From assembly GCA_035553375.1 (NCBI GenBank), contig DATNCY010000159.1, positions 34,653-66,652 of the forward strand: a stretch of 32,000 nucleotides of DNA, in the 5' to 3' direction. Shown in pieces: positions 2,733 to 19,721 of the stretch. Position numbers and translations under genes: made by a program. Positions within the stretch are counted from its first letter, which is position 1; each line of letters starts with the position of its first letter. Source of the stretch: Gemmataceae bacterium (GTDB taxonomy: Bacteria; Planctomycetota; Planctomycetia; Gemmatales; Gemmataceae). Below the pieces are notes generated by a model, which ran no database searches, had not been told where the DNA came from, and saw only the letters and a list, made by a program, of their open reading frames with translations.

Positions 2733-2905
2733 GTTCTTTCCTCTCGGCCCCCGCTGATCGGGAGGCCGCGTCCAAGGATAGGGGGTGGACAAAGCTCCCG
2801 TTCGGTCACAACGACAGGGTTTGGCCCCTCTAAAGAGAGGAGTTGCAAAGAGTTTCTGTGACAAACGCACGGCCGGCCAAGGCCAGGGGAAGAAGCGGAG
2901 GAAGT

Positions 2906-3466
2906 ATGGATCGGGAACAACCGATGGGGGACCAAACACGCCACTTCCTGGAGCAACATTTTCCCGGCGCGTATCTCGACGAGTTGAAGGCGTTAGCTCA
3001 CGCCTTGGCCGGCAGGAAAGCCGGCCAGGTCGATCCTTCCGGGCTGGTTGTGAATGCGATGCTCCGGGCCGCCCGCAAGCATCGCCAGCTCGAAGAACTG
3101 GGCAATCTGAAGGCGTGGTTCAAAACCATCCTGGTCCGCGAAGTGATGGCCAAGCTGAAACTGGAATGCTATCGGCGGACGCAAGAACTGGGCGAGGACC
3201 ATTTACGCCAGCTGCCCCAGATACGCGAGCAAGATAACGCGGTGGAACGCGAAGATGAAAAATCCTGGGCCAAGGCGTATCTGGGACAATTGCTGTCGCG
3301 AATGACCGAACAAGACCAGGAGGTAATCTGTCTGAGCCGGCTCAACGAGTTGCCCGACGCCGACGTGGCGGAGTTGCTTGGCATCAGTACGGAAGCGCTC
3401 CGCCAACGACGCAGCCGAGCTTTGCGACGACTGCAAACACTCGCGGAGCAATTCCCCACCGGCTGA
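2906..3466 (+). CDS. ECF-type sigma-70 family RNA polymerase sigma factor
   Basis: ATG at 2906 is preceded by GCGGAGGAAG, a strong SD. The TTG at 2843 is a less likely start. A region-2-like segment is present (DPSGLVVNAMLRAARKH ... NLKAWFKTILVREV). A region-4 HTH is present (LSRLNELPDADVAELLGISTEALRQRRSRALRRLQ). The 186-aa size is typical of ECF sigmas. Confidence 0.85.
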   Translation: MDREQPMGDQTRHFLEQHFPGAYLDELKALAHALAGRKAGQVDPSGLVVNAMLRAARKHRQLEELGNLKAWFKTILVREVMAKLKLECYRRTQELGEDHLRQLPQIREQDNAVEREDEKSWAKAYLGQLLSRMTEQDQEVICLSRLNELPDADVAELLGISTEALRQRRSRALRRLQTLAEQFPTG

Positions 3467-3540
3467 GTAAACGCGCCTCCGGCCTTGCCCGGCGATGCTG
3501 GCAAAGCTGCTCTCCTTAGAGGCACTAACACCATGAATTG

Positions 3541-3589
3541 CCAGCCCGCAGCGCCAACGAGAGAATCCCTTGCTGGCGCGGCGGGCTGG
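3541..3589. repeat. REP-like palindromic element (degenerate copy)
   Basis: CCAGCCCGCAGCGCCAACGAGAG (3541-3563), loop AAT, CCCTTGCTGGCGCGGCGGGCTGG (3567-3589). It lies between the sigma stop and the kinase start. Confidence 0.85.
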
Positions 3590-3634
3590 CCAAAATGTTC
3601 GTGCCCCTTAATCCTCAGCGGAGATTTACCGGCC

Positions 3635-5410
3635 ATGAATGATCCGACGAAGCGCGATCCGGAACCGCCCACGGTCCCTCATCCGCCGCCACTACCGAAT
3701 TCACCTGCAATCGAACCGCCCACGGCTCCGCGTCGATCCAGCGAGGCCGAGGCCAACGGAGTTATGCCCTCGTCGGGCGAGCTTGCCAAGGATCTCGTCC
3801 GTCAGATCGCGAACTCGGAGTCGCTCGCCGGGCGAATGGCGGAGGACGAAGAGGACCAGATTCTTCTCGATTGGCTCAAGCTGCGACCGGGAGGGATACT
3901 GGGGAAGGATGATCGCTGTTTCGAGATCGGCAAACAGATTGGCCGGGGTGGGATGGCCGTCGTCTACGAAGCACGCTGGCAGGGTACCGATCGACGCGCC
4001 GCCATCAAAGTTGTTTTCCGCGTCAAAGTGCGCGAAGCGGGATTGATCCAACTTCTGGAAGAAGTGGCGACCATCGAGAATCTCGATTCCGAGTATGTTC
4101 CACGTATCCACGCCCACGGTCTGGAACCGGACTTCGCCTGGTTCGCCATGGACTATCTCGAAGGCGGCACCCTGCACCAAAAAATTCAAAATGACGCACC
4201 GCTGTCGTGGGAACAAACCAAAACGATTTGCAAAGACATCCTCAAGGGATTGCGTGATCCCCACGCCAAGGGGTTGGTTCACGACGACCTCAAACCGGGC
4301 AATATCATGGCCATCAAGGATGGCAGCAAGTGGAAGGTTCTGGATTGGGGCTTGTCTCGGGCTGTTTGTCCCTGGAGCGGTTCGGCCGTCACCGATGGTC
4401 TCTCTGGAACCTTGCCCTATCTCGCCCCGGAATGCTGGAAGAATCGATCCGAGCATAGCGCGCAGTCCGATTTCTACGCGGTCGGAGTCATGATGGTCGA
4501 AATGCTCACCCGCAAGAACCCATTCGCGGGCCTTTCCATCGGGCAATTAGCGGCCGCTCATCAGAGCGCGAAGTTGGCCGAGGTTCCGGGACTACCGGAT
4601 GAAGCACGTCGAATCGTGGCCAGGGCGACGGCCAAGGAACCAGGCGAGCGCTATCGCAACGCGAACGAATTTCTGGACGATCTCGATGCCAAGGAAGATG
4701 GACCTCGCCGCAAGCCTCGAAGGTGGCCGTGGCTGGCACTCGCCGGGGTCGTAGCGCTGGCCCTGGCCCTGTGGTTCAGCTTCTTTCGTTCAACGCCCCC
4801 GCCTCAATTTCAGGGCGCATTTACCTTGTGGTTGGCCGGGAGAAACGAACAACCATTCCCCAAGGCCCGCGCGGTCGGCGGCCCGAATACCCTGCCCCTC
4901 CAGGCGGGCGACCGTATCGTCTTGCAAGCCAAGCTACGGCAAGGACCGGCGGCGTACTTCTACGTGATCTGGATCGATAGCGAAGGGAAAGCCAAACGGC
5001 TCCATCCTTCCGGATGGAGCGCGGATGCGCTGCCTTCGGTTGATGCGAAACAACAGGACATGCGTTGGCCAACGGAGGGCGGTTCGGCGGCGTTGGCCAA
5101 ATCGACCGATGGATTCGAGTCGGTCTTGTGGTTGGTGCGTGAAAAGCCATTGAGCAAGGTGGAGAATACGCGGATACAAAACTTGCTCGGCGACCTATCG
5201 TGGCGACAACCGCCGGAGTGGAAGGGTAAGGAAATCGCCGTCTGGTGGGAGAATGGGTTACGCACGGAGGACCGCGGCGCTCCCGATCCGAAAACGATCC
5301 GCATCGCCGATGACCCCATCACGCAGACGGAAAAACTCTTGCGCACCCTGAAGGAACGCGGCCTGGTTCAACATTCGTATGCCGTGTGTTACTCGTTTGT
5401 CGGCCAATAG
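3635..5410 (+). CDS. Transmembrane Ser/Thr protein kinase with C-terminal DUF4384-like extracytoplasmic domain
   Basis: The ORF opens with TTG at 3485, but its first 50 codons run through the REP element, so the ATG at 3635 (MNDPTKRD) is preferred. Hanks kinase motifs are present: IGRGGMAVVY, AAIKVV, VHDDLKPGNI, VLDWGLS, GTLPYLAPE. A TM helix follows (WPWLALAGVVALALALWFSFF). The ectodomain contains GDRIVLQAKL...AYFYVIWIDSEGKAKRLHP, which resembles DUF4384. Confidence 0.9.
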   Translation: MNDPTKRDPEPPTVPHPPPLPNSPAIEPPTAPRRSSEAEANGVMPSSGELAKDLVRQIANSESLAGRMAEDEEDQILLDWLKLRPGGILGKDDRCFEIGKQIGRGGMAVVYEARWQGTDRRAAIKVVFRVKVREAGLIQLLEEVATIENLDSEYVPRIHAHGLEPDFAWFAMDYLEGGTLHQKIQNDAPLSWEQTKTICKDILKGLRDPHAKGLVHDDLKPGNIMAIKDGSKWKVLDWGLSRAVCPWSGSAVTDGLSGTLPYLAPECWKNRSEHSAQSDFYAVGVMMVEMLTRKNPFAGLSIGQLAAAHQSAKLAEVPGLPDEARRIVARATAKEPGERYRNANEFLDDLDAKEDGPRRKPRRWPWLALAGVVALALALWFSFFRSTPPPQFQGAFTLWLAGRNEQPFPKARAVGGPNTLPLQAGDRIVLQAKLRQGPAAYFYVIWIDSEGKAKRLHPSGWSADALPSVDAKQQDMRWPTEGGSAALAKSTDGFESVLWLVREKPLSKVENTRIQNLLGDLSWRQPPEWKGKEIAVWWENGLRTEDRGAPDPKTIRIADDPITQTEKLLRTLKERGLVQHSYAVCYSFVGQ

Positions 5411-5446
5411 TCCTACATCGCGTCGTAAGAGACACTAATTTTTTGA

Positions 5447-5497
5447 CCTGCTCGCAGCGCCAGCAAGGGAGTGTCCCTTGCTGGTGCTGCGGGCAGG
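5447..5497. repeat. REP-like palindromic element
   Basis: CCTGCTCGCAGCGCCAGCAAGGG (5447-5469), loop AGTGT, CCCTTGCTGGTGCTGCGGGCAGG (5475-5497). The A-to-T change at arm position 3 is mirrored on the partner arm. It begins 37 nt after the kinase stop. Confidence 0.9.
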
Positions 5498-5533
5498 CAA
5501 TTCATGGTGTTCGTGCCTCGAAGGAAACAGCCC

Positions 5534-8500
5534 ATGAAACGGCATGTCGTGTTGATCGCTTTGATCCTGGTTCTCGCGCGAACGGCGATCACGCCGGCCC
5601 AGCAGGAAATTAAAGACTTCTTTCAAGGGTTAGAGGACAAGGCTGACAGGATACGCAAGTGGGAGAGGGAGGAGCAACAGAAGATCGCCCAGGAAATGCG
5701 CGCGGAGAGCGAACGTCTGCGTCCTTTCTGGCTCATGCTGGAAGCCGAGCAACTGCAAGGAGAGAACCAGTTCCTGCCCGCGATCGAGCGGACGAAAGAG
5801 GCGGCTCGCAAGTACGAAGGCAAACGGGCCGAACAACTCACCTTCGCCGGAGCCGCTGCCTACCGCGAGATTTTGCTGCAACTCGGCCGGTTGTACGCCC
5901 TCATCGGAGAACAGGAGCAAGCACGCCAGGCGGCCTTGCAAGCCTGGAAAATCCACGAAGTGGTGATGGCTTCTTCGCGGCGTGGCCGCCGCGCGGATCA
6001 GCAAGACCGGATGCGAACCGCCCTTGCCGTGGCCCTGGTATTGGTTGCCGCCGACCAGCCCGACGAGGCCGCCGTGTTCGTCCATCGGGCTTTCGATGTG
6101 GGGCGACAAATGCCCGAACCGTTCAATCGGCCCGAACAAAATCCCTTCCTGGTGGAAGCGCTCCTTCTGAAAAGCATGTTGGCCAACAACGCCGGCAACT
6201 ATCCCGCGGCGCTGGTCGCCGGCAAGGAATTGGAGAGGTTGCTCCGCAGACAATATCCGTGCACAACGCATCCCGACGGCGATCCGAAATTGGCGGCGGG
6301 CCTGGCGAATCTGGCGTCGGCCCATGTTGCTTTGGGAGAATTTTTACCGGCCTTGTCCCTGTTAGACGAAGCCGACCGCATTCTCGGCCAACATGATCCC
6401 AAGGGCAAGCCGATTCGAGCCGAAGTGAAACGCATTCTGGGACATTTGTACTTACATCGGGGCGAAGACAAGCAAGCCCAGGACAATATCACGAAAGCGC
6501 GGTTGATGTATGAGGAGCTTTTTCCGGAAAAGTCTTATCCGCGCAGCCACCCTGCGCTGATTCAAGCACTCGCATCCCTGGCGGACTTGCTGAATCACTA
6601 CCATCATCGGGAAACTCTCGACTACGCGAAACTCGCCTGGCAACATTGCCAACGGCGTTATGCCCAACAATCGCACTCTCAAAAGGTCTCCGTTCTGCTC
6701 ACCTACGGCCGCTGCCTGCGCGATGCCGGCCAGCTGGAATCCGCCCGCCGGCGGTTCGCCGAAGCGGTGGACATGGCCAGCGTGCTTGGTGCCGCCAAAC
6801 CCACGGCCGGCGGCGATTCGCTGACAGCCTTGTGTCAGCTTCATCTTGGTAGTTTGCTGGGGCGTCAGGGGCGCTACGACGAGGCTCGCAAACTCTTTCA
6901 AAGCGCTCAGGCGACGTATCAAAAGTTTTTCCCCGATGGACATCCGCATTTGTTCGCGATCGCGGGGTATCAGGGGGTTCTTGCATCACGCCAAGGAGAT
7001 CGAGCGGGAGCGCGCGCGGCTTTCGCCCGCGCGCTCCAGTTGGATCAGAAACAACTCCGGCATTTCGCGCGCACCGTCGCCGAAGTGGAGGTGTTGAGTT
7101 TCACGCAGCCTCGACAACTTGTTTTGCACGGCTATCTGTCCGCCAGTCGCGGCGAGCCGGAACTTGACGAGCAGGCGTTTCGCTGGGTTTGGGCATCCAA
7201 GAACGCCGTGACACGGCTGGCGCAAGCCCGTCGGGCCGCCGTCCGTCTCGCCGGCGATAGGGGAAACCCCGAGGCCAAACGAATCCTGGCGGAGTTGGTC
7301 GATACATGTGCCCGTTTGCGTCAGGGACAAACCACGGTCCACGCCGGCACTTCGCTCCCGACTCTTGTGAAGGAGATGAATCGGCTAGAGTTGGAATTAA
7401 GTCAATTCTGGCCGGAGGCCGAACGGCTCCTCCATGAAGCGGAAAACGATCCCGGCGATCTGGCGGCGCATCTGCCTTCGGGTTCGGCATTCATCGATTT
7501 TGTCCGCTATACCGACCTCGCCGAAGGCCAAGCGTTTCAGCCGCGCTATGTGGCGTTCGTCGCGCTGCCCGGACGGAAGCCGCGCCGAATCGAATTGGAG
7601 TTAGCGCAGCCTATCGACGAGACGGTCAACGCCTGGCGCAAGTCCGTGGATGGGTGGAATCCCCGGATGCCCGACGCGGCGCGGCGGGACTACGAGCAGG
7701 AAAGCGAGACGCTGGCCGCGAAGTTGAGGCGGATTGTTTGGGAACGGATCGCCCCGGTGTTGCCGGCCGAAACGCGATTGCTTATTCTGGCGCCCGACGG
7801 CGATTTGGCCCGCTTCCCTTTCGCCGCGCTGCCGGGAGATCAGGCCCGGACGATTCTGCTTCAAAAATTCTCGATCGCCTACGTTCCGCACGGCCAATTC
7901 TTGTTGGCGCATCTGCATCAGGATAAAGCCCGCCCTCGCCAGTCCGATAGTTTCTTGGCCGTGGGAGGAGTGGCTTATGGCACACCGGGAGCCTTGCCGG
8001 ATCGCGCCTTCAAGGATCTCCCCGGTTCCTTGGGCGTGATCGAACTGGCCAAGCGGTGGCCCACGACGCAAACGACGCATATCCTGCGAGACCGGGAAGC
8101 TACGGTGAATAGGCTTCTTGGCAAGCTGCCGGAAGTCTCGGAAGCCCACCTCTCGACCCACGGTTTTTTTGACGAAAAAGCACTGAACGAGGAACGTGAA
8201 CAACAGACACGGATGATCCGCGATTGGACGCCGCGTTTGGAAACTCCGGTGGGATACATCGGTCTGGGGCACCGATTCCCGCTCAGCTTCGTCGGGCTTG
8301 TCCTCGCCGGAGCGAATGAGCCTAACACGGCCGACGGCGGCATCTTGACCGGAGAAACGCTTTCCCATCTCTCCTTGCCCCGATCTCGGTTGATAGTCCT
8401 TGACGCCTGCGAAACGGGACTGGGCAAATATACCGCCGGAGAAGGGGTGCAAGGACTGCAACGCGCCGTCCATCTGGTGGGTTGTCCGAACGTCATCGCT

Positions 8501-9019
8501 ACCTTGTGGCGCGTCAACGACGCCGCTTCGCAAGCTCTGGCGGAGGAATTTTATCGGCAACTATGGCAGAACAAGCTGCCGACGCTGGAAGCCTTGCGGC
8601 AAGCCCAACTCGCTCTCTACCGCGACCCCGGCCGCGTGTCGCAGAGCGGACAACGACGCGGCATACCACAACGGGAGCCGTTCCCAGACCCGGAAATTCG
8701 CCTGCCGAGCAGCATCCATCCGAACGATAGGAGCCATACGCAGATGTGGGGGGCCGCTTATGTCCACTCCGGTATGGGTGATCCGCTACTGGATCCGGCT
8801 GAACTGTCCGCGTTGGTTGGCCGTCTGGAAGAACAGGAAACGCCTGAGACCGCAACAGCTTCCTCGTTCGGAGTTCTGCCGGCATTGGCACTGGGCGGAC
8901 TGTTGACGTTGGCCGTCTTCGTTGTCATGCTCATTTGGCGGTTGTGGTGTAAACCGGCGGTAGTGGTTGCCGCGCCGAAGGAGCCTGAAGCGATTTCCGA
9001 CTCCGGTTCGGAACAATGA
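5534..9019 (+). CDS. TPR-repeat / CHAT-domain (caspase-like) protein with N-terminal signal peptide and C-terminal TM anchor
   Basis: The GTG at 5471 lies inside the REP. The ATG at 5534 follows AGGAAA and gives MKRHVVLIALILVLARTAITPAQQ, which is signal-like. A long helical TPR-like region follows, with repeated motifs such as LANLASAHVALGEFLPAL and LGHLYLHRGEDKQA. The CHAT core has the His motif EAHLSTHGFF (His codon 8159-8161) and the Cys motif LIVLDACETG (Cys codon 8408-8410), then GVQGLQRAVHLVGCPNVIATLWRVND. The C-terminal hydrophobic helix is LPALALGGLLTLAVFVVMLIW. Confidence 0.9.
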   Translation: MKRHVVLIALILVLARTAITPAQQEIKDFFQGLEDKADRIRKWEREEQQKIAQEMRAESERLRPFWLMLEAEQLQGENQFLPAIERTKEAARKYEGKRAEQLTFAGAAAYREILLQLGRLYALIGEQEQARQAALQAWKIHEVVMASSRRGRRADQQDRMRTALAVALVLVAADQPDEAAVFVHRAFDVGRQMPEPFNRPEQNPFLVEALLLKSMLANNAGNYPAALVAGKELERLLRRQYPCTTHPDGDPKLAAGLANLASAHVALGEFLPALSLLDEADRILGQHDPKGKPIRAEVKRILGHLYLHRGEDKQAQDNITKARLMYEELFPEKSYPRSHPALIQALASLADLLNHYHHRETLDYAKLAWQHCQRRYAQQSHSQKVSVLLTYGRCLRDAGQLESARRRFAEAVDMASVLGAAKPTAGGDSLTALCQLHLGSLLGRQGRYDEARKLFQSAQATYQKFFPDGHPHLFAIAGYQGVLASRQGDRAGARAAFARALQLDQKQLRHFARTVAEVEVLSFTQPRQLVLHGYLSASRGEPELDEQAFRWVWASKNAVTRLAQARRAAVRLAGDRGNPEAKRILAELVDTCARLRQGQTTVHAGTSLPTLVKEMNRLELELSQFWPEAERLLHEAENDPGDLAAHLPSGSAFIDFVRYTDLAEGQAFQPRYVAFVALPGRKPRRIELELAQPIDETVNAWRKSVDGWNPRMPDAARRDYEQESETLAAKLRRIVWERIAPVLPAETRLLILAPDGDLARFPFAALPGDQARTILLQKFSIAYVPHGQFLLAHLHQDKARPRQSDSFLAVGGVAYGTPGALPDRAFKDLPGSLGVIELAKRWPTTQTTHILRDREATVNRLLGKLPEVSEAHLSTHGFFDEKALNEEREQQTRMIRDWTPRLETPVGYIGLGHRFPLSFVGLVLAGANEPNTADGGILTGETLSHLSLPRSRLIVLDACETGLGKYTAGEGVQGLQRAVHLVGCPNVIATLWRVNDAASQALAEEFYRQLWQNKLPTLEALRQAQLALYRDPGRVSQSGQRRGIPQREPFPDPEIRLPSSIHPNDRSHTQMWGAAYVHSGMGDPLLDPAELSALVGRLEEQETPETATASSFGVLPALALGGLLTLAVFVVMLIWRLWCKPAVVVAAPKEPEAISDSGSEQ

Positions 9020-9052
9020 ACTCGCTTACTCCTCCGTTCGAGGAATCTTCCA

Positions 9053-11212
9053 ATGCCCATCTCCATCCGTTGTCCGAAATGCTCCATTATTCTCCGGGTG
9101 GCCGACACTTCGGTTGGCCAGAATGTGCGTTGTCCAAAGTGTCAGGCGGTGATCCATGTCGCCGCGCCCGCATCGCCGGTTCCGCCGGTCGCCATCCCGG
9201 TACGTCCGGCCACGCCTTCCATCCGGGCATCGCAGTCGGCACCTGCTCTATCTCGCCGACCTGCTCCCACTACCGTAGCCAGCGAATCCATCGTGAAGCC
9301 AGCCCGCGGTCGAGGACGACTCATCGGCCTGCTTTCCGCCGGCCTTGGCCTCATCGTGCTGCTTGGGGTTATGGTTTTGTGGTGGGCTGTCTCTCGGCGT
9401 CAGCCGCACGATGTTCGCGGCAATACCGAGAACCCGCAGGCAGCCGTTTCGCGCTCGGGAACGATACCGGAGACCATTCCGAGAGAGAACGCGAGGCCGA
9501 CCGAAAAACCGAAGTTTGAACAGGAGCCGAAGTCGGCGGAGAAGACGTCTGATCCGTCCGGCGGAGAATCGACCTCAACGATGCTGGAGCCGTTGCTGCC
9601 GGTGGAAGCGGCGGCCGACGATCCGCCCGGCGTCAGCGTCCCCCTGTTCTTCGCCCAGTTCCGTTCGCTGAGCAAGCTGCTTGGGGATGCCCAACTACTT
9701 GCCGTCGCTCTGGGCAAGAAACAGGAGCTTGACGACGGTTTGCTGAAAATGAAAAAATCCATCAGCACGGAAGGCATGCAGGGATTCGACGCAGGCAAAC
9801 CGTGGGGCGTCTATGCGCGTGTCCGCGATAAGGGCGACATCGGGACCGTCGTGCTTTTGCTGCCCGTCCGAAAAGAAAATTCGTTCCGCCGTCTGTTACA
9901 AGATCTTGGTTTCCAGGAACAGGCTTCTCGCGGAGACTTAATCTCGTACAAGTTCCCCGATCAGCCCTTGCTGCCGGTGATATTCCCGGTGAAACTCCCC
10001 GAACAATTTTACCTGCGCTTCGCCGGCGATTACGCGCACATTTGCCTCATGGGAGATCCGAATCTGCTGGTAGGCGATAAAATGCTACCGGCCGCATCCT
10101 TATTTGCTCCCGGCCGCGATAAGCTTCTATCCGCAACGCTGCGGATCGATCGGCTGCCCAAACCGTGGTGCGAAGCGTGGATGGCCAAGGCGAAGGAGGG
10201 GAAGGGATTGCTTCCCCAGGCCGATTCGGAGATCGTCCGCACCTATGGCGTCGCATTTGCTGAGAAATTGACTGAGTATGCGACCGACCTCGTGAAAGAA
10301 GGGAGAAACCTCACCTTCGAGATGGAATTGAACCGCAAGAGCGAGAGCATCGCGGTCGATCTGTATTTACAGGGTCAAAAAGGCTCTCGATTATCGGCAA
10401 ACCTCGCTGCTCTGAGTAAAACCCCCAGCCTGTTTGGTTCCCTGGCGCAACCGGATGCCGCCTTCCGTTTTCTGGTCAATGTCCGTTTGCCGTGGGAATT
10501 GCGGCAAATGTTGCCGGCTCTCGTCAACGAGGCGACCCGGCAAACGCTCCGCGATGCGACCGCTGAAGATCGCCGGAAACACGAACCCCTTTTCCGTACC
10601 CTGGGAGAAACCTTCGCGGCCGGCGAACTCGATGGCGTGGTGGTCGTGCGGAGTCGCGGCGAAGGGAAACCGGCATCAGTCGAGGGCGGTTTGAAAGTGC
10701 CCAATGGGGCAGCCCTCGATAAACTCTTCCGCGATCTGGTTGCCGAGCTTCCGGACAAGGCCGTTCGCGATCTGTTTGAGATGGAGGCCGAGGATTTCGG
10801 CGGCGTCAAAGCGCATCGCTTCCGTGCGCAACAGTATTTTACGGACACGCCGCGCAAAGTATTCGGAGACAACCCGTTCTACTACGCCTTTCGCTCGGAC
10901 GCGCTTTTCTATGCGGCGGGAGACAGGAGCAAGCAGACTCTTGCGGATGCTCTGCCGTCGCGGCCCAAGGAATCGCCTCTTGCTCTGCTGACGGTGAATC
11001 TTCGGCAACTCAACCAGTTGCTTCCCCTTCAGAGCGAGGATGCGCCGCTGCCACGCGAGCAGTTCACCAGGGCGCATCCGGGCCGCATCCGTTTGGAACT
11101 TGCCGGCGGTGATTCCTTGCGGTTCCATGTGGGCATCGAACTGGCCGTCCTGCGGTTTCTCATCACTCGATTGGATCAACTTCCTTTCCGGATCGAGACG
11201 AAGCCGCGCTAG
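9053..11212 (+). CDS. Zn-ribbon / single-TM protein with large extracytoplasmic domain of unknown function
   Basis: ATG at 9053 follows GAGGAA and lies 33 nt after the CHAT stop. The N-terminus is MPISIRCPKCSIILRV...VRCPKCQAVIHV, a CxxC...CxxC zinc ribbon. Then come a Pro-rich linker, a TM helix (LIGLLSAGLGLIVLLGVMVLWWAV) and ~590 aa with no recognised domain. Confidence 0.85.
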   Translation: MPISIRCPKCSIILRVADTSVGQNVRCPKCQAVIHVAAPASPVPPVAIPVRPATPSIRASQSAPALSRRPAPTTVASESIVKPARGRGRLIGLLSAGLGLIVLLGVMVLWWAVSRRQPHDVRGNTENPQAAVSRSGTIPETIPRENARPTEKPKFEQEPKSAEKTSDPSGGESTSTMLEPLLPVEAAADDPPGVSVPLFFAQFRSLSKLLGDAQLLAVALGKKQELDDGLLKMKKSISTEGMQGFDAGKPWGVYARVRDKGDIGTVVLLLPVRKENSFRRLLQDLGFQEQASRGDLISYKFPDQPLLPVIFPVKLPEQFYLRFAGDYAHICLMGDPNLLVGDKMLPAASLFAPGRDKLLSATLRIDRLPKPWCEAWMAKAKEGKGLLPQADSEIVRTYGVAFAEKLTEYATDLVKEGRNLTFEMELNRKSESIAVDLYLQGQKGSRLSANLAALSKTPSLFGSLAQPDAAFRFLVNVRLPWELRQMLPALVNEATRQTLRDATAEDRRKHEPLFRTLGETFAAGELDGVVVVRSRGEGKPASVEGGLKVPNGAALDKLFRDLVAELPDKAVRDLFEMEAEDFGGVKAHRFRAQQYFTDTPRKVFGDNPFYYAFRSDALFYAAGDRSKQTLADALPSRPKESPLALLTVNLRQLNQLLPLQSEDAPLPREQFTRAHPGRIRLELAGGDSLRFHVGIELAVLRFLITRLDQLPFRIETKPR

Positions 11213-11226
11213 AGGACAAAACCCTG

Positions 11227-11281
11227 CCAGCCCGCAGCACCAGCAAGGGAATGAATCACCCTTGCTGGCGCTGCGGGCTGG
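11227..11281. repeat. REP-like palindromic element between convergent genes
   Basis: CCAGCCCGCAGCACCAGCAAGGG (11227-11249), 9-nt loop, CCCTTGCTGGCGCTGCGGGCTGG (11259-11281), with one mismatch. It fills the 72-nt gap between two convergent stop codons. Confidence 0.9.
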
Positions 11282-12854: not shown

Positions 12855-14612
12855 GTGAGGAACGCCTTGAAAGGTCATTTATTCATCACACCGGGCGACC
12901 TTACGCAATTGAGCGCCCATGCCATCGCTTATTCGGCCAGCAACGCGCTGGGCCGCGACGGTAATCTGTATTCCGCTTTCGCGGCCAATGTGCCGGGTTT
13001 CGCCGAGTGGTACAACCAGCTACGTCCCGGCCAAGGGCAACTCCGCGAGGTCGGCGATGCTTTCTGGATGCCCTTGAAAACAGGCCAGATGCCGCGAGGC
13101 GTGGTCGCCGTCGTCTCGACGGGTGGGCCGGCCACCACCGAGGACAAGGCCGCCATCGCCGTGCGCGCGGCCCTCACTACGGCCGTCCGCGAACTGCGGA
13201 ACACACACGAAAAGCAGAAACATCTGCTCATTGCTTTACCCGCGTTCCGGTTGGGCAAAGGAGGCGATCGCCGACAGCGCTTGCGTTCGGCCCGCGCGCA
13301 GATCAGCGCCGCCCGCGATTTCCTCGCTCACAACGAGGGCGTCGATGTCGCCTTCATTCCGTACACGATCTCGCTCTACCAGATTTTTCTCGAAGCACGC
13401 CGCGAAGTACGCGACAAGCTTTCGTCCGATCCGCCGCGCTATTCCACCTTGGAACAGGCGTTGCTCGCGCGCGAATGCGTCCTGTTCGTCGGCGCCGGCC
13501 TCTCGTCTGGTGCTGGTTTGCCTGACTGGAACAGCCTGGTACAGCGATTAAGCGGCGATCTGGGCATCGAGTGGCAGGATCGACACAATTATCTCGATCT
13601 CGCCCAGTGGTATCGCGAACGCTTCGGTTCGGAGCGACTCGCCGCGGTCATCCGCGACACCTACACGACGACGGCGTATCCGACCCTCGCGCACTACCTG
13701 CTGATGTCGCTGCCGGTTCGCCATGTCATCACGACCAATTACGACGACCTGCTTGAACGCGCTCTGATCGGTCTCAAACGGCATCCCGTCAAGGTTCTGC
13801 ATCAGCAGGATGTGGCCCGCACCGGACAGGATGACGTTTTCGTCGTCAAACTGCACGGCGACGCGGCCCATCCCGATGAGGTCATCCTGACGCGCGACGA
13901 TTACGACGAGTTCTTTCATCGCCGACCGGCGATGGCGCTGCTGCTGGAGGGGTTGCTGCTCAATCAGACGTTCTTTTTCGTCGGCTACGGGCTGCGCGAT
14001 CCGAACTTCCGGCAGATTCAAAGCCGCATCGTGCGCATGCTGCGCGAGGCACAGCGGCCAGCCTTCGCCACGACCTTCGAGGCGTCCGGCGACAACGGTC
14101 CTTATCTCATCGAGCAATGGCGCAACAAGCAGCTGGCTCTTATCAATATCCCCGGCGCGACGCTGGCCGAGCAGCAACACGCATTTCTGCAATTCCTCGA
14201 CAATCTGGCCGATCTGGTAGCGCTCCAGATGCCGCAATTATTTCTCACGCCGGAATTGCAAGTCTCGCCCGAACTGAGGCATCTGCGCAAGCTGCTCCTT
14301 GAGGAAGTCGGAGCCGAGATGGAGACGTTCGCCGAGCGCGACCTATCCGGTTCGACGGCCTGGCAGGATGTACGCTATCTGGCTGAGGTGCTAGAGTTTT
14401 TGACCGCGCACGGTTGGCGACCGGGAACACGCAAGAGCCTTGACTTGTGCCGCTTGTGGGAGCAACTGGCGGCGCACGCGGCGGGGCCGGCCGAGCAGCG
14501 CCGATTGCTCATCGCCGCGCTCGGTGCCGCCGAGGCGTTTGCCGATGTTCAGCGCATTCGGAATAAACTCGCGGAATTGGAACGCCCGATGGAAGGACAG
14601 GCAAATCCTTGA
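12855..14612 (+). CDS. Macro-like domain + SIR2_2 (defence-type sirtuin-like) domain + helical C-terminal domain fusion protein
   Basis: The start is GTG at 12855, or TTG at 12867 which follows GTGAGGAA. Residues 1-185 align by eye to the macro fold: FITPGDLTQLSAHAIAYSASNAL, GVVAVVSTGGP, LLIALPAFRLGKGG, VDVAFIPY. Residues ~200-430 carry the SIR2_2 motifs CVLFVGAGLSSGAGLPDW, VITTNYDDLLE (Asn codon 13737-13739), VVKLHGD (His codon 13854-13856), ILTRDDYDEF and FFFVGYGLRDPNF. The last ~150 aa are helical. Confidence 0.85.
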   Translation: MRNALKGHLFITPGDLTQLSAHAIAYSASNALGRDGNLYSAFAANVPGFAEWYNQLRPGQGQLREVGDAFWMPLKTGQMPRGVVAVVSTGGPATTEDKAAIAVRAALTTAVRELRNTHEKQKHLLIALPAFRLGKGGDRRQRLRSARAQISAARDFLAHNEGVDVAFIPYTISLYQIFLEARREVRDKLSSDPPRYSTLEQALLARECVLFVGAGLSSGAGLPDWNSLVQRLSGDLGIEWQDRHNYLDLAQWYRERFGSERLAAVIRDTYTTTAYPTLAHYLLMSLPVRHVITTNYDDLLERALIGLKRHPVKVLHQQDVARTGQDDVFVVKLHGDAAHPDEVILTRDDYDEFFHRRPAMALLLEGLLLNQTFFFVGYGLRDPNFRQIQSRIVRMLREAQRPAFATTFEASGDNGPYLIEQWRNKQLALINIPGATLAEQQHAFLQFLDNLADLVALQMPQLFLTPELQVSPELRHLRKLLLEEVGAEMETFAERDLSGSTAWQDVRYLAEVLEFLTAHGWRPGTRKSLDLCRLWEQLAAHAAGPAEQRRLLIAALGAAEAFADVQRIRNKLAELERPMEGQANP

Positions 14613-14616
14613 CTTG

Positions 14617-14666
14617 CCAGCCGGCAGCGCCAGCAAGGGAAATCCCTTGCTGGCGCTGCCGGCTGG
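14617..14666. repeat. REP-like palindromic element (perfect 27-bp stem including flanks)
   Basis: CCAGCCGGCAGCGCCAGCAAGGG (14617-14639), loop AAAT, CCCTTGCTGGCGCTGCCGGCTGG (14644-14666). The flanking CTTG/CAAG extend the stem to 14613-14670. The C-to-G variant at arm position 7 is compensated on the partner arm. It starts 4 nt after the SIR2 gene stop. Confidence 0.92.
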
Positions 14667-14781: not shown

Positions 14782-17700
14782 ATGGCATGGCCGCTCTCGC
14801 AGGATTACAACGAAGCGCTGCAAAACCCCCAAACCAGTTTTAGCGACCCCGAGTTGCGCCAGGGCCAAGTTGTTACCAACGTCCTCGGTATTCCGCAACC
14901 CTGCTCCGGCAACTTCGCCGATGTCTATGCCGTCGAGTGTGAGGCCAGCAAAACCAAGTGGGCCGTCAAGTGTTTCACTCGGGAGGTCCACGGCCTGCGC
15001 GAACGCTACAGCGAAATCAGCAAGTATTTGCAGCAGGTTCGCTTGCCGTTCACCGTCGATTTTCAGTACCTCGAACAGGGCATTCGCATCGCCGGCCGTT
15101 GGTATCCCATCCTCAAAATGCACTGGGTCGAGGGCTTCACCCTCAATGCCTTCGTTCGCGACATGCTCGACAAGCCGGCCATGCTCGATGCGCTAGGGCA
15201 AATCTGGCTGCGCATGGGCCGGCGTTTGCGTGAGGCGAATCTAGGCCATTGCGATTTGCAACATGGCAATGTTTTGCTGGTGCCCGGCAGCACGGCGCAA
15301 TCGCTGGCCGTCAAGCTGATCGATTACGATGGCATGTGGGTTCCCGCGTTGGCCAAGACGCCATCGGGCGAAGTCGGCCACCCCGCCTATCAGCACCCTC
15401 AACGCTTGCGCGACGGTACTTACAACGCCGAGGTGGATCGCTTTCCTCTGCTGGTCATCGCCACGGCGCTACGCTGTCTGCGCGTCGGCGGCCGGGCGCT
15501 GTGGGAGCGCTACGATACCGGCGATAATATGCTGTTTCGTGAGGTGGACCTACGTGCGCCGGCGGAATCGGCGCTGTTTGCCGAACTACGGCAGATCAAC
15601 GATCCGCTTGCCCGTTCGCTGGTGGAGCAGCTAGTGCAGGCCAGCCAAAAGCCACTCGACCAAACGCCGCTTTTACAAGAGTTGTTCCCCGACGAGAAGC
15701 CGGCCGTGTCCGCGGGGACGCGCGGCAAACCGCAGGCGGCGCGGACCACTGCGGCGGTGACAACCGAGCCGAACGCCTTCCAAGATATTGAAACGACAAG
15801 CACGGGGAAGCGTTCACGCCGCAAAACGAATAGCGCCAAAAGAACCTCTGTCGTCCCGTGGATCGTGGGCGGCGTCGTGGCGGCCTGCATCCTTATCGGA
15901 AGCGGATTGTTCTGGGTGCTGCACTCCAAGAGTGCGCGCGACAAGACTCTTCCCACACCAGACCTCCGGCAAGCGCAAGCGCTCCGCGGCGAACTGGTGA
16001 AAAAGCCCGAAGACAACCTCCCACCGCAACCTGTCGAGAGACCGACGGACAAGAATCCCGAGAACAAGCGTCCCAAGCCGGCGATGGTTCAACTCCTTGA
16101 TGGTCCTCCCGGCGAAGTGCGGCGTTTCGAGGGACACGCGGGCGATGTGATCGACGTTGCCTTCTCGGGTGACGGTAAACGCGCTCTCACGGCCAGCGCG
16201 GACAAGTCGGTGCGCTTGTGGGATGTCGCCAGCGGCGAGACGATCCACATCCTGAATGGCCATACGCAAATGGTCTGGAGCGTCGCCTTTTCTCCCGACG
16301 GCAAACGCGCCGTCTCGGCCGGCTATGACAGCACGGTTCGCGTGTGGGATCTGGACAAAGGCGAGCAACTCCGCGCCATCACCGGCTATCCGGGGGCTGT
16401 TCGCCGAGCCGTGTTCACAGCGGATGGCCGGCAGGTCATCGCGGCGGGGATGGGCAAAAGCGTCCGCCGGTGCGACGCCATGACGGGGGCGGAAGTCAGC
16501 CAGTATGCGGGGAGCCAGGCCGATAACTATTGCTTGGCGTTGGCTCCCAAAGGCGATGTCGTTTTGGCCGGCGAAGGCGATAACATCGTTCATTGCTGGA
16601 ACGTCGCCGATGGACGTGAACTGGATCCCTACAAGGGCAGTATCAGCCATGTGTATGCCCTCGACTGCTCGCATGACGGCCAATTGATCGCGGCGGCTGG
16701 CGGCGATCCGGTTGTACGCATCTGGCGTGCCTCGGATCGCACGTTGCTGCACAGTCTGGCGGGACATAGTGCGCAGGTGAACGCGGTTCGTTTCACGCCG
16801 GATGGCCGGTTGCTGTCGGCCAGCCACGATCAGACGGTTCGCCTGTGGGACATGGCGACGGGACGCGAATTGGCGCGTTTTTACGGACCTGAAGGGTGCA
16901 AAATGCTGAGCGTGGCCGTTTCGCCGGACGGCCGCCATTTCCTATCGGGCGGCTCGGATAAGATGATGCGACTGTGGCGTTTGCCACCTGCGGATGTTTT
17001 GGCGAGCAAACCCGATGATCCTGCCAAGCAGATTCAACCATTCGAGGGACACACGGCCGAGATCAACGGCGTGACCTTCGCGCCCGATGGCCGGCTCGCC
17101 CTGTCCGGCAGTAGCGACGGGATCGTGCGCCTGTGGGATCTGCCGGCCGGCAAAGAAGTGAGACAGTTGACCGGCCACCAGGACAAGGTTCAGAGCGTGG
17201 CCTTCTCGCCGGATGGCCGTTTGGCCCTCACCGGGGCCTTGGATAAGACGGCTCGCATTTGGGATGTGGGCGAGGGGCGAGAATTGTTTTGCTTCCGCGG
17301 GCATAACGACTGGGTCCGCAGCGTCGCCTTTTCGCCGGACGGCAAGCGAGCGCTGACGGCCAGCGGTGGTCCAGGCAACGTGGACTGCACCGTTCGATTG
17401 TGGGATGTTGCCGATGGGAAAGAAATCCAGACCTTGCGCGGCCACAACAAGCCGGTCACGGCCGCCGTCTTTTCTCCGGACGGCCGCCGGGCCATCTCCG
17501 GCAGCGATGATGGAACCGTCCGGCTATGGGATCTGGCCGACGGTCGCGAAGTGCGGAAATACACGGGGCATCTAGGGTTCGTCTATGGTATCGCTGTATC
17601 CGGCGATGGCCGGCTCGCCGCCTCGGTGGGCGATGACAAGACGGTGCGACTCTGGGATCTGCAAGGCGAGAAGGAACTACTTCGCCTGGATGGACACACC

Positions 17701-19362
17701 GATCTGACCATGTGCGCCGCCTTCTCTCCTGACAGTCGCCGCATCCTCTCCGGCAGTCTGGACAAGACGTTGCGACTCTGGGATACGGCGACCGGGCGCG
17801 AATTGGCGTCTTTCAAGGAAAGTCAGGCGGGCGTGAAATGCGTGGCCTTTTCTCCAGACGGTCGCCATGCCTTGTCGGGAGGGCTGGACAAATTAATGCG
17901 ACTGTGGCGATTGCCCTTCGCTCCGCTGATGTTCGGCCGACCAGTCGAAATCAAGACGGAGCCGGCTCCGCCCCCGCCTCCAGTTGCGGCGAAGCTGCCC
18001 GTGCCGGACAAGGATGCTCAGAAGAAGTGGACCGATGACATCCGCGAGAAATATAAGCTCTCCTACGCCTCCAAGGATTCGGCCGACCTCGCCGCCCTTG
18101 CCGATAAGCTGTTTGCCCACGGAATGAAAAAGACTGAGCAATCGGAGGGGCGTTACATTTATCTTGTCGAAGCCTCCGACGTGGCGGCCAAGGCCGCCGA
18201 TCCGGTTCTGAGTCTGCGTGCCGTGGATGAGTTGGGCAAACTCTTCGTCATTGCGGAACTGCCGATGAAGGCCGTCGCGCTCCAGACGGCGGTAAAGGCG
18301 GCGAAGACGCTCAGCGCGAACAAGGCCATTCTCGAATCGGCCCTCCCCCTGCTCGCCGAGGCGATTGAGACAGACGATTACGACGCCGGCGAACGTCTTG
18401 CCAAGACAGCCGAAGCGGCAGGTTATCAGACCCGCGACTCCACCAGGAGAATTCTCTTTCTCGCCAACGAGGTGAAGCGCTTGAAGCGCTTGAAGCCGAA
18501 ATACCCGGCCGTCAAACTGGCTCTCGAAACGCTCGTGAAGGAGCCGAACGATCCCAGGGCGAACGGCATCGTGGGAAGTTTTCGCTGCTTCGACAAAGGC
18601 GACTGGGCGCGAGGATTGCCCCTACTCGCTCTGGGCGATGACGCCAAAATCAAAACCCTTGCCGAGCAAGACTTGGCCGCGCCGCAGACAGCCGACGCGC
18701 GGGCGGCTGTGGGCGATGGCTGGTGGAACCTCGCTCAACCAAGGGCGAAGGGAGCGGTGAAAGCGAACATCCAGCAGCGAGCCTGTTACTGGTATGTGCT
18801 TGCGCTGGCGGATGCAGCGGAGAAAAACCGCGTCCGCTTGGAGAAACGCATTCGGGGATATAATAATGATTATCCAACCGCGGCGTGGGAACACCTGGAC
18901 ATCTCTCAGGCGACCGTGACGCTCGGAGCCTTGCGGCTGGACAAGAAGGCCAAGCAAATCATCACGCGCGAGTCCTATTCGGGGCCGATCGAAGTCACGG
19001 TACTCACCAGCACCGAGAAGAATAATATCCGTCTTTATGGCGGCAAAGGGGCTTATGTAATCTTCAACCACGAAAGCGAGCCGGGAGGGTTGGAGTTGGG
19101 GCGGCCCGATGGCGAGCAGCCATATACAGGCAGCAAGGTCCGCAGCCGATTGCAACCGCCCCTTCGCCCGAAAACCTGGTATCTCTTGAGTTGGCGTATC
19201 TCCGAGGAAGGCATGAGCGCCGGAGTCAATGGGCGCGTGGCCTACTCCGAGGACCACAAGAATAACTTGTCAGGGAAATATCCAATTCACCTCCAGACGT
19301 TTGACTCCGATATTGAAATACTGTCCTTCACGGTTCGGCCCCTCAAGAAGAAATCGAACTGA
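14782..19362 (+). CDS. Atypical protein-kinase-fold domain / TM helix / 14 WD40 repeats (two 7-blade propellers) / large C-terminal domain protein
   Basis: ATG at 14782. The N-terminal kinase-like motifs are GNFADVYAV, KWAVKCF, GHCDLQHGNVLLV and KLIDYDGMW. The TM helix VVPWIVGGVVAACILIGSGLFWVL lies at about nt 15850-15925. Fourteen blades end in VRLWDV-type motifs across about nt 16110-17925. The ~480-aa C-terminal region includes GDWARGLPLLALGDD. Confidence 0.9.
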   Translation: MAWPLSQDYNEALQNPQTSFSDPELRQGQVVTNVLGIPQPCSGNFADVYAVECEASKTKWAVKCFTREVHGLRERYSEISKYLQQVRLPFTVDFQYLEQGIRIAGRWYPILKMHWVEGFTLNAFVRDMLDKPAMLDALGQIWLRMGRRLREANLGHCDLQHGNVLLVPGSTAQSLAVKLIDYDGMWVPALAKTPSGEVGHPAYQHPQRLRDGTYNAEVDRFPLLVIATALRCLRVGGRALWERYDTGDNMLFREVDLRAPAESALFAELRQINDPLARSLVEQLVQASQKPLDQTPLLQELFPDEKPAVSAGTRGKPQAARTTAAVTTEPNAFQDIETTSTGKRSRRKTNSAKRTSVVPWIVGGVVAACILIGSGLFWVLHSKSARDKTLPTPDLRQAQALRGELVKKPEDNLPPQPVERPTDKNPENKRPKPAMVQLLDGPPGEVRRFEGHAGDVIDVAFSGDGKRALTASADKSVRLWDVASGETIHILNGHTQMVWSVAFSPDGKRAVSAGYDSTVRVWDLDKGEQLRAITGYPGAVRRAVFTADGRQVIAAGMGKSVRRCDAMTGAEVSQYAGSQADNYCLALAPKGDVVLAGEGDNIVHCWNVADGRELDPYKGSISHVYALDCSHDGQLIAAAGGDPVVRIWRASDRTLLHSLAGHSAQVNAVRFTPDGRLLSASHDQTVRLWDMATGRELARFYGPEGCKMLSVAVSPDGRHFLSGGSDKMMRLWRLPPADVLASKPDDPAKQIQPFEGHTAEINGVTFAPDGRLALSGSSDGIVRLWDLPAGKEVRQLTGHQDKVQSVAFSPDGRLALTGALDKTARIWDVGEGRELFCFRGHNDWVRSVAFSPDGKRALTASGGPGNVDCTVRLWDVADGKEIQTLRGHNKPVTAAVFSPDGRRAISGSDDGTVRLWDLADGREVRKYTGHLGFVYGIAVSGDGRLAASVGDDKTVRLWDLQGEKELLRLDGHTDLTMCAAFSPDSRRILSGSLDKTLRLWDTATGRELASFKESQAGVKCVAFSPDGRHALSGGLDKLMRLWRLPFAPLMFGRPVEIKTEPAPPPPPVAAKLPVPDKDAQKKWTDDIREKYKLSYASKDSADLAALADKLFAHGMKKTEQSEGRYIYLVEASDVAAKAADPVLSLRAVDELGKLFVIAELPMKAVALQTAVKAAKTLSANKAILESALPLLAEAIETDDYDAGERLAKTAEAAGYQTRDSTRRILFLANEVKRLKRLKPKYPAVKLALETLVKEPNDPRANGIVGSFRCFDKGDWARGLPLLALGDDAKIKTLAEQDLAAPQTADARAAVGDGWWNLAQPRAKGAVKANIQQRACYWYVLALADAAEKNRVRLEKRIRGYNNDYPTAAWEHLDISQATVTLGALRLDKKAKQIITRESYSGPIEVTVLTSTEKNNIRLYGGKGAYVIFNHESEPGGLELGRPDGEQPYTGSKVRSRLQPPLRPKTWYLLSWRISEEGMSAGVNGRVAYSEDHKNNLSGKYPIHLQTFDSDIEILSFTVRPLKKKSN

Positions 19363-19424: not shown

Positions 19425-19721
19425 ATGAAAGAATCCCAACAAGTCTTGGAATGGATCAATATGGGACGAGCCGAAGGGCGGGCTGAAGGACGGACTGAAG
19501 GACGGACCGAGGGACGAGCCGAGGGGCGAACCGAGGGGCGAGCCGAGGGCGAAGCGAGTGCCTTGCTGCGCTTGTTGGCCAAGCGGTTCCCGCCGGGAGC
19601 GCCGGTGGATTTGGCCGCGAAGATTCAGCAGACTACGGAACTGGAACATCTGCAAAATTGGTTCGATCTGGCATGGGCAGTCGATTCGCTCGACGCTTTC
19701 CGCCAGGCGGCCTCGCTGTGA
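19425..19721 (+). CDS. Small DUF4351-like protein with expanded GR(A/T)E repeat
   Basis: ATG at 19425 is preceded by GAAGGAG with 6-nt spacing. The GTG at 19395 is the alternative start. The sequence ...EGRAEGRTEGR...EGEASALLRLLAKRFPPGAPVDLAAKIQQTTELEHLQNWFDLAWAVDSLDAFRQAA matches my memory of the DUF4351 C-terminal module of Rpn/YhgA-like PD-(D/E)XK proteins. The nuclease part is absent. Confidence 0.65.
   Translation: MKESQQVLEWINMGRAEGRAEGRTEGRTEGRAEGRTEGRAEGEASALLRLLAKRFPPGAPVDLAAKIQQTTELEHLQNWFDLAWAVDSLDAFRQAASL
19464..19547 (+). repeat. In-frame 12-nt tandem repeat, 7 copies (GGRCGRRCYGAR, encoding GRAE/GRTE)
   Basis: Read directly from the sequence: gga cga gcc gaa / ggg cgg gct gaa / gga cgg act gaa / gga cgg acc gag / gga cga gcc gag / ggg cga acc gag / ggg cga gcc gag. 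Confidence 0.95.

Follow-up and report, generated by a model that had tools for sequence, protein, structure and literature searches.

A candidate envelope-to-cytoplasm signalling cassette of Gemmataceae-type planctomycetes combining a kinase-linked sigma factor with a predicted periplasmic TPR-CHAT protein

How might a cue outside the cytoplasmic membrane reach a sigma factor of the extracytoplasmic function (ECF) class that has no recognisable anti-sigma partner? The question is raised by four genes in a 32,000-nucleotide stretch of a Gemmataceae bacterium (assembly GCA_035553375.1, contig DATNCY010000159.1, positions 34,653 to 66,652), referred to here at its full length as the window and used for all coordinates below unless another locus is named. 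In order, and on one strand, they encode a sigma factor (2906-3466, +, 186 aa), a protein kinase (3635-5410, +, 591 aa), a TPR-CHAT protein (5534-9019, +, 1161 aa) and a membrane protein with an N-terminal zinc ribbon that we call ZnR (9053-11212, +, 719 aa), with gaps of 168, 123 and 33 nt. The original prediction had described these co-directional genes and gaps; the coordinates were reproduced and NCBI calls the same open reading frames (ORFs), since an exact-sequence look-up returned the same four products as consecutive entries HWG43949.1-HWG43952.1 of a Gemmataceae metagenome-assembled genome, annotated as sigma-70 family sigma factor, protein kinase, CHAT domain-containing protein and hypothetical protein. 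That prediction also suggested that phosphorylation may gate the sigma factor and that the CHAT protease may cleave ZnR as an anti-sigma-like protein. Our analysis favours the former and disfavours the latter. We propose, with belief and doubt about equally balanced, that the locus is a cassette, conserved in Gemmataceae-type planctomycetes, for signalling from the envelope to the cytoplasm, in which the kinase phospho-activates the sigma factor, and periplasmic CHAT and ZnR proteins control either the kinase or a TIR protein that takes its place. The core of the cassette would consist of three proteins, each predicted to cross the membrane once and to expose its large domains to the periplasm: the output protein, TPR-CHAT and ZnR.

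The ECF identity of the sigma factor, assigned earlier from the letters alone, is borne out by matches to TIGR02937 (sigma70-ECF; 57.8 bits against a cut-off of 42.9) and Sigma70_r4_2 (38.7 bits, E 8e-10). With the curated model TIGR02937 passed and region 2 alignable to RpoE, the protein classes as a two-domain ECF factor (group IV). Pfam Sigma70_r2 did not match it, the sigma2 region being too divergent, and NCBIfam ECF subfamilies scored far under their cut-offs, as with Sig-70_plancto1 at 47.9 against 183.75. The most telling feature lies in sigma2.2. In an alignment with its relatives and with E. coli RpoE, whose sigma2.2 is DVPDVVQE, the DxxDxxQE stretch of the window protein reads DPSGLVVN; where DAED is expected stands D43-P-S45-G, the codon for Ser45 occupying 3038-3040. 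All eight sigma relatives carry DPSG, DASG or DTSG at this point, always with serine in position 3. In ECF43 sigma factors the acidic DAED is likewise gone, and position 3 is a threonine that is phosphorylated by the cognate kinase, the motif being STTA in EcfP (PMC8999054) and QATE in EcfK (PMC13147305); Ser45 occupies the phospho-position of both proteins.

When the acidic motif of sigma2.2 is missing, a sigma factor should have no activity alone and no need of an anti-sigma factor (PMC8999054), and the degenerate DPSG thus suggests that the window protein is inactive by itself and requires none. ECF groups linked to serine/threonine kinases (STKs) typically occur without anti-sigma factors, and planctomycetal examples are ECF59, 61, 62 and 217 (PMC7826278, PMC8999054). 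As had been stated in the original prediction, no recognisable ZAS- or RskA-type anti-sigma factor follows the sigma gene: ZAS, RskA and ASD models found no match in the proteins downstream of it. Directly 3′ of the sigma gene, in four loci, is a Hanks kinase gene. This adjoining kinase, together with a DPSG motif whose serine sits at the EcfP/EcfK phospho-position, supports the kinase gating that had been suggested, and the sigma factor looks like a kinase-gated ECF factor of the EcfP/PknT type that does without an anti-sigma factor.

The kinase domain (Pkinase, E 3e-41; residues 96-340, nt 3920-4654) should be active, because Lys125, the catalytic loop HDDLKPGN (of non-RD type), DWG and APE are all kept. 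A single transmembrane helix (residues 366-384, nt 4730-4786) leads to an ectodomain of 207 residues (385-591, nt 4787-5407). The proposal that this ectodomain is DUF4384 fared less clearly: the match to PF14326 is sub-threshold (18.1 bits where 27 are required, over profile positions 3-45 of 81), and the same profile segment is matched, at 17.9 bits, by the homologous ectodomain of the TIR protein described next. The transmembrane helix and ectodomain (residues ~313-458, window 4571-5008) also weakly match an NCBIfam model named 'anti-sigma factor', NF052375. This match recurs in two orthologues, the window kinase and that of a distant locus, L009 (30 and 22 bits, cut-off 100), and it fits a kinase that has replaced an anti-sigma factor. 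It also suggests that some anti-sigma factors share the ectodomain of the kinase.

At one locus, L006, the place of the kinase is taken by a TIR_2 protein of 440 residues, of which residues 73-418 align to kinase residues 245-588 (32.6% identity, E 2e-41). The transmembrane helix and ectodomain are common to the two proteins, and to judge from this alignment the gene 5′ of CHAT is one receptor scaffold with an exchangeable cytoplasmic Hanks kinase or TIR domain. The TIR_2 protein matches Thoeris ThsB/ThcB4-type TIR models. The locus reads TIR_2-CHAT-ZnR-VWA-TPR_19-DoubleGTPase and has no sigma gene within ~20 kb; a sigma factor accompanies the kinase version only and none is found with the TIR version. 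The exchange of outputs, taken with the restriction of sigma to the kinase version, places the sigma factor downstream of the kinase; and since the shared ectodomain is kept with CHAT and ZnR, these two appear to be partners of the ectodomain and not of the sigma factor. The ZnR gene is followed by genes for a multi-transmembrane VWA protein, a TPR_19 protein and a membrane Double-GTPase-2 both in L006 (11862-18591) and in L010/L011 (2789-8980). These genes are absent from the window and may extend the TIR-type version.

Neighbourhoods were gathered by context look-ups of relatives of ZnR and of the sigma factor. The full order sigma-STK-CHAT-ZnR is found in the window, on the P0002 contig, in L003/L004 and in L009, where the proteins are only 26-34% identical to those of the window and gene overlaps of 14 and 4 nt are seen. 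In a genome of 9.3 Mb the STK, CHAT and ZnR genes stand together and a sigma gene whose product is 80% identical lies ~300 kb away, with all four genes intact. RHS-repeat fragments lie at both breakpoints of that genome (L001 ~3551-4262 and L002 10874-13351), in a region rich in transposases and integrases, which suggests recombination or inversion. Further partial arrangements are CHAT, cut off upstream, followed by ZnR (L007, L008 and L012). Because the synteny is kept on independent metagenome contigs, down to ~26-34% protein identity, the arrangement is more than chance; by this comparative measure the four genes form a conserved functional unit, as the earlier analysis had supposed. The coupling of CHAT to ZnR that it assumed is tight, CHAT lying immediately 5′ of ZnR in nine of the ten loci with a visible upstream gene. 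A paralogue of the ZnR ectodomain that has only a signal peptide (P0031) is accompanied by none of the cassette neighbours. Two loci hold additional signalling genes: convergent to the ZnR gene of L008 is a fusion of a soluble kinase-like domain with TIR_2 (2895-4292, -), and after that of L009 comes a second Hanks kinase gene (9542-10117, +).

The TPR-CHAT protein, a predicted caspase-like protease, combines a TPR region (~residues 109-520, TPR_12) with a CHAT domain (residues 727-1080, nt 7712-8773; E 4e-49). Its catalytic dyad, which had been called intact, consists of His876 in STHGF (nt 8159-8161) and Cys959 in LDACETG (nt 8408-8410) and is invariant in six homologues at 33-63% identity. 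The N-terminus (residues 1-23) is signal-like and ends in PAQ-Q, and a transmembrane segment near the C-terminus (residues 1117-1135, nt 8882-8938) is followed by R/K. Every CHAT homologue with visible ends shows both features, the signal-like N-terminus and the C-terminal transmembrane segment with basic residues, and the body of the protein is therefore predicted to be periplasmic and anchored at its C-terminus. For all three non-sigma proteins, hydropathy combined with the positive-inside rule puts the large domains outside the membrane, as had been anticipated. Queried with the CHAT protein, by sequence as well as by profile, the PDB chains yielded TPR proteins only and no CHAT-containing chain, and homology to DdvA or Csx29 did not emerge.

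ZnR begins with a ribbon of residues 1-37 (9053-9163), modelled by AlphaFold as four-stranded with pLDDT 90-96. Zn_ribbon_4/MJ0042 scores lie below the Pfam cut-off (20.8-23.3 bits vs 30.3), and TIGR02098 is under its cut-off as well, but the two CxxC knuckles, CPKC-x17-CPKC, are kept in most ZnR-type relatives, the first being lost in P0027 and P0029; knuckles and model uphold the earlier assignment of a zinc ribbon to the fourth protein. The rest of the cytoplasmic part is a disordered, proline-rich stretch, the linkers having pLDDT <50. There follow a transmembrane helix (residues 90-112, 9320-9388, by hydropathy; residues 92-114 in the full-length AlphaFold model), a disordered P/E/S-rich periplasmic linker of ~85 residues (113-197, 9389-9643) and an ectodomain of ~510 aa (198-707, 9644-11173). 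Modelled alone with 100 homologues by AlphaFold2, the ectodomain reaches pLDDT 92.8 and pTM 0.91. Pfam has no match to this member of the family, and Foldseek found no real match to the model, the best PDB entry being TP0453 (TM-scores 0.20/0.37), with none in BFVD. An exhaustive HMMER search (E<=1e-3) collected 1299 representative clusters of the ectodomain family, most of them proteins of ~540 aa with only a signal peptide, the form with a zinc ribbon and transmembrane helix being a minority. A second MJ0042-type ribbon protein is encoded in the window at 29592-30134 (-). It has 180 aa, comprising a ribbon 52% identical to that of ZnR, a linker very rich in charged residues and, C-terminally, a hydrophobic region, and is otherwise an unrelated membrane protein, so that the ribbon appears to be a generic N-terminal module of this genome.

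We propose the following sequence of events. The sigma factor would be inactive alone, its sigma2.2 core-binding motif being degenerate, and would be switched on when the kinase phosphorylates Ser45, as PknT does with EcfP. An extracytoplasmic cue would reach the periplasmic CHAT protease, for which the TPR array may serve as sensor or scaffold, and the protease would then cleave one of its membrane partners, either in the disordered linker of ZnR or in the juxtamembrane region or ectodomain of the output protein. Cleavage may relieve inhibition of the output protein, release it or cluster it, and so render the kinase or TIR domain active. ZnR would be the co-sensor or the substrate of the protease and not an anti-sigma factor. 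Three precedents support this reading. For DdvA it has been proposed that a periplasmic TPR-CHAT, as site-1 protease, severs a flexible linker beside the membrane before RseP acts (PMC11506125). DUF4384 is the C-terminal domain of some Csx30 proteins, which are substrates of the CHAT protease Csx29 (bioRxiv 10.1101/2022.08.17.504292). PknS without its periplasmic domain autophosphorylates without stimulus (PMC13147305).

The DdvA/DdvS system of Myxococcus xanthus, which the original prediction did not mention, is the closest precedent. Like the cassette, whose topology is predicted, it encodes an ECF-type sigma factor with a periplasmic TPR-CHAT that keeps its His/Cys dyad, it has a single-pass protein with a zinc-binding cytoplasmic domain and a long flexible periplasmic linker, and its proposed logic casts CHAT as a periplasmic site-1-type protease. 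In DdvA, however, an N-terminal ZASD forms part of the TPR-CHAT chain, whereas the TPR-CHAT of the cassette is a separate protein that has a C-terminal anchor and a signal-like peptide of its own, a ZAS (HxxxCxxC) is lacking, and the ribbon sits on ZnR. A Hanks kinase in the anti-sigma position and a degenerate sigma2.2 belong to the cassette only. In a census of DdvA-like proteins these were confined to Myxococcota and one Comamonas species (PMC11506125). The ECF43-type pairs (EcfP/PknT of V. parahaemolyticus and EcfK/PknS of X. citri) and ECF59, 61, 62 and 217 share with the cassette a sigma gene followed by a transmembrane Hanks kinase gene without an anti-sigma factor, and in the ECF43 type the acidic DAED/DxxD of sigma2.2 is gone and Ser/Thr occupies position 3. 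They differ in that ECF43-type motifs read STTA/QTTA, whereas DPSG keeps the first aspartate, and in that the cassette adds CHAT and ZnR partners, which the texts covered here (PMC7826278, PMC13147305, PMC8999054) do not report for these groups.

The type III-E craspase (Cas7-11/Csx29, Csx30, Csx31, RpoE) likewise links a TPR-CHAT protease to an ECF-like sigma factor and has a DUF4384-type domain in its pathway, at the C-termini of some Csx30 proteins. Its CHAT protein is cytoplasmic, in contrast to the predicted export of the one studied here, and the cassette lacks Cas7-11, a crRNA array, Csx30 and Csx31; unlike its type III-E counterpart, the DUF4384-like domain of the cassette is periplasmic and fused to a kinase or TIR domain. 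The window has no CRISPR array, no Rfam RNA, CRISPR matches included, and no gRAMP-sized gene, its only ORF of >1200 aa encoding an STK-WD40 protein, and the earlier view of a CRISPR-independent locus stands. ECF54 and the EACC2-caspase systems with an ECF sigma factor and DUF1822 also place a caspase-fold protease beside an ECF sigma factor, with proteolysis proposed to be regulatory (PMC8999054, PMC8195603), but these are actinobacterial or cytoplasmic multidomain systems without a kinase, ZnR or exported topology. The ingredients are thus known singly, as STK-activated ECF factors, as a periplasmic TPR-CHAT linked to an ECF factor and as CHAT-controlled sigma release in type III-E systems; in the searchable literature we found no description of an exported, C-terminally anchored TPR-CHAT combined with a ZnR ectodomain protein, a kinase/TIR-exchangeable scaffold and a DPSG sigma factor.

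Several points weigh against our proposal. Which of two candidates CHAT would cleave is a guess. The sigma factor keeps Asp43 at motif position 1, and some basal activity is possible. The assignment of DUF4384 to the ectodomain is sub-threshold, and the topology of kinase, CHAT and ZnR is predicted solely by hydropathy and the positive-inside rule. The comparison covers about 11 loci, several of them truncated and several from related lineages; the TIR variant is seen whole only in L006, L010/L011 showing the downstream part alone, and in L013 an STK gene adjoins ZnR with no CHAT gene present, which shows that the system has no strict need of the protease. Lastly, a gene divergent from the sigma gene, described below, could encode an unrecognised sigma regulator.

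The main competitor is a split version of DdvA, in which the ribbon of ZnR holds the sigma factor, CHAT clips the linker as site-1 protease, intramembrane proteolysis frees the sigma factor and the kinase acts as a second gate. The layout of ZnR does mirror the N-terminal half of DdvA, with a zinc-binding cytoplasmic domain, one transmembrane helix and a long disordered periplasmic linker, its gene sits beside that of a periplasmic TPR-CHAT, and type III-E systems offer the case of an ECF-like sigma factor released through a CHAT protease (bioRxiv 10.1101/2022.08.17.504292). We nevertheless consider this arrangement unlikely, as we do the original suggestion that ZnR is an anti-sigma factor cleaved by CHAT. 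ZnR is kept in the sigma-less TIR locus, and in the genome of 9.3 Mb it is unlinked from the sigma gene; its cytoplasmic domain, a 35-residue beta ribbon, is of the form CxxC...CxxC and not a helical HxxxCxxC ZAS or ASD, for which no match was obtained; two relatives have lost the first CxxC; the same ribbon tops the unrelated membrane protein at 29592-30134; and a degenerate sigma2.2 argues against the need for an anti-sigma factor. A different possibility is that the link is one of expression, the sigma factor and kinase merely controlling transcription while CHAT and ZnR form an envelope machine for protein processing or lipid handling that sends nothing back to them. ECF sigma factors as a rule control the operon that encodes them (PMC7826278), most members of the ZnR ectodomain family are free periplasmic proteins in housekeeping surroundings, and its sole, weak structural neighbour, TP0453, is a membrane-interacting lipoprotein. 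What remains with CHAT and ZnR through the TIR swap and the loss of sigma is, however, the ectodomain and not the kinase as such, which points to a physical periplasmic partnership rather than a purely transcriptional link and makes this explanation highly improbable.

An alternative that concerns biological role, and is compatible with the mechanism we favour, is that the cassette is an immune or conflict sensor, in which periplasmic TPR-CHAT/ZnR detects an invader protein and the output is NAD+ destruction through TIR or sigma-driven expression of defence genes through the kinase. An immune or conflict role is plausible, and this specific form of it a tentative possibility. It would fit the match of the TIR_2 output to Thoeris ThsB/ThcB4-type models, the continuation of L006 with VWA, TPR_19 and Double-GTPase genes that are kept in L010/L011, and the presence in the window, 1.6-3.6 kb downstream, of a ThsA-like SIR2 gene (E 1e-51) and a giant STK_OB/WD40 gene. 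DdvA/DdvS controls a CBASS-CRISPR island (PMC11506125), EcfK/PknS responds to amoeba predation (PMC13147305), and a caspase with an ECF sigma factor is a theme of conflict systems (PMC8195603). Set against this, PADLOC has no model for CHAT, ZnR or sigma, matches the kinase to generic kinase models only and reports no system-level match; no relatives were found on viral contigs; and the SIR2 and STK-WD40 genes are parted from the cassette by an opposite-strand gene and repeats, so that the linkage may be coincidence. A broader formulation, which we regard as doubtful, would be a modular receptor-protease pathway: CHAT and its ZnR partner would sense an extracytoplasmic, possibly invader, protein, cleave, and trigger an exchangeable output on the DUF4384-like scaffold, either the non-RD kinase leading to sigma or a TIR NADase. 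Such a pathway would be a bacterial counterpart of receptor-kinase/TIR innate immunity with the protease outside the cytoplasm.

The proposed signalling cassette looks rare, as it was found neither among GTDB species representatives nor on viral contigs. A narrow ZnR alignment found nothing in GTDB genomes and only one 1-kb contig in metagenomes, and viral contigs yielded no relatives of the module. With the CHAT alignment, GTDB genomes gave four distant TPR-CHAT genes at 26-32% identity. These were rejected as members of the same module since tblastn found no kinase, ZnR or sigma neighbour; at L014 and L017 the Pfam content of the neighbours agrees, and there the CHAT domain ends the protein, with no C-terminal anchor.

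Upstream of the sigma gene a block GTCACA-N16-CCTCTA (2805-2832, +) is shared with L002 (9847-9874) as GTCAC[AG]-N16-CCTC[TA]A, and in the window, L002 and L009 alike a TGTGACA motif (window ~2858-2864) precedes the start codon of sigma by ~35-45 nt. Together they offer a weak lead to a candidate promoter or operator; no further copies of the pattern occur in the window or the loci, and no regulon can be inferred from it. The divergent gene (1941-2732, -, 263 aa) has no Pfam or NCBIfam match. Its homologues also lie divergently upstream of sigma in L002 (8995-9549, -, 70% identity) and L009 (1016-1783, -, 30% identity; L002 vs L009, E 2e-14), and when sigma and kinase-CHAT-ZnR parted in the 9.3 Mb genome, this gene remained beside sigma. 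It is possibly a fifth component or a target of the sigma factor.

The hairpins that the original prediction had noted in the first two gaps do fold and belong to a dispersed intergenic family of palindromes resembling repetitive extragenic palindromic (REP) elements. They lie at 3540-3590 between the sigma and kinase genes (-41.4 kcal/mol, z -6.4) and at 5443-5500 between the kinase and CHAT genes (-53.8 kcal/mol, z -9.3); another, with two inverted arm matches, closes the cassette at 11234-11274, and further members of the family occur at 1837-1915 and 14624-14659. The arm motif GCAGCGCCAGCAAGGGA has 11 matches in the window against 0.29 expected, all intergenic, and in this genomic region almost no gap between genes is without a REP-like perfect palindrome, those of the first two cassette gaps spanning 3548-3582 and 5454-5490. 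Orthologous operons that lack REPs have gaps ranging from -14 to 75 nt, apart from a single one of 195 nt. The short gaps where REPs are absent suggest that the ancestral unit was a tight operon and that the large gaps of the window come from REP insertions. A function of the hairpins as operon-splitting terminators was considered and rejected, as they lack T-tracts, belong to a dispersed family and are missing from orthologous operons with short gaps.

The gene 3′ of the cassette lies on the opposite strand. Beyond it, a gene at 12855-14612 (+) encodes a 585-aa SIR2_2 protein that matches Thoeris ThsA SIR2 models (PADLOC E 1e-51), its N- and C-terminal regions being without assignment; no adjacent ThsB-like gene was seen. 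The following gene (14782-19362, +) encodes a protein of 1526 aa with an N-terminal kinase (PADLOC STK_OB, E 1e-77) and then >11 WD40 repeats; the gene is closely followed by a 12/24-nt tandem repeat (19463-19558).

Phospho-activation of a sigma factor by a Hanks kinase and a periplasmic TPR-CHAT, the latter only in DdvA, have been described separately; the cassette presents both in one conserved operon, and the same periplasmic machinery appears wired to TIR in place of the kinase. The work also defines a large uncharacterised family of periplasmic domains, with ~1300 representative clusters, a confidently predicted fold and no structural relatives found. If our proposal is true, the cassette would offer a tractable system for learning what a periplasmic CHAT protease senses and cleaves, would show how a membrane Hanks kinase is activated from outside, and would show how bacteria swap a transcriptional output for an NADase one on a single sensor. 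With it, periplasmic TPR-CHAT signalling would reach beyond Myxococcota into Planctomycetota, and the cassette looks like a new route by which a signal from outside the cytoplasmic membrane may reach transcription.

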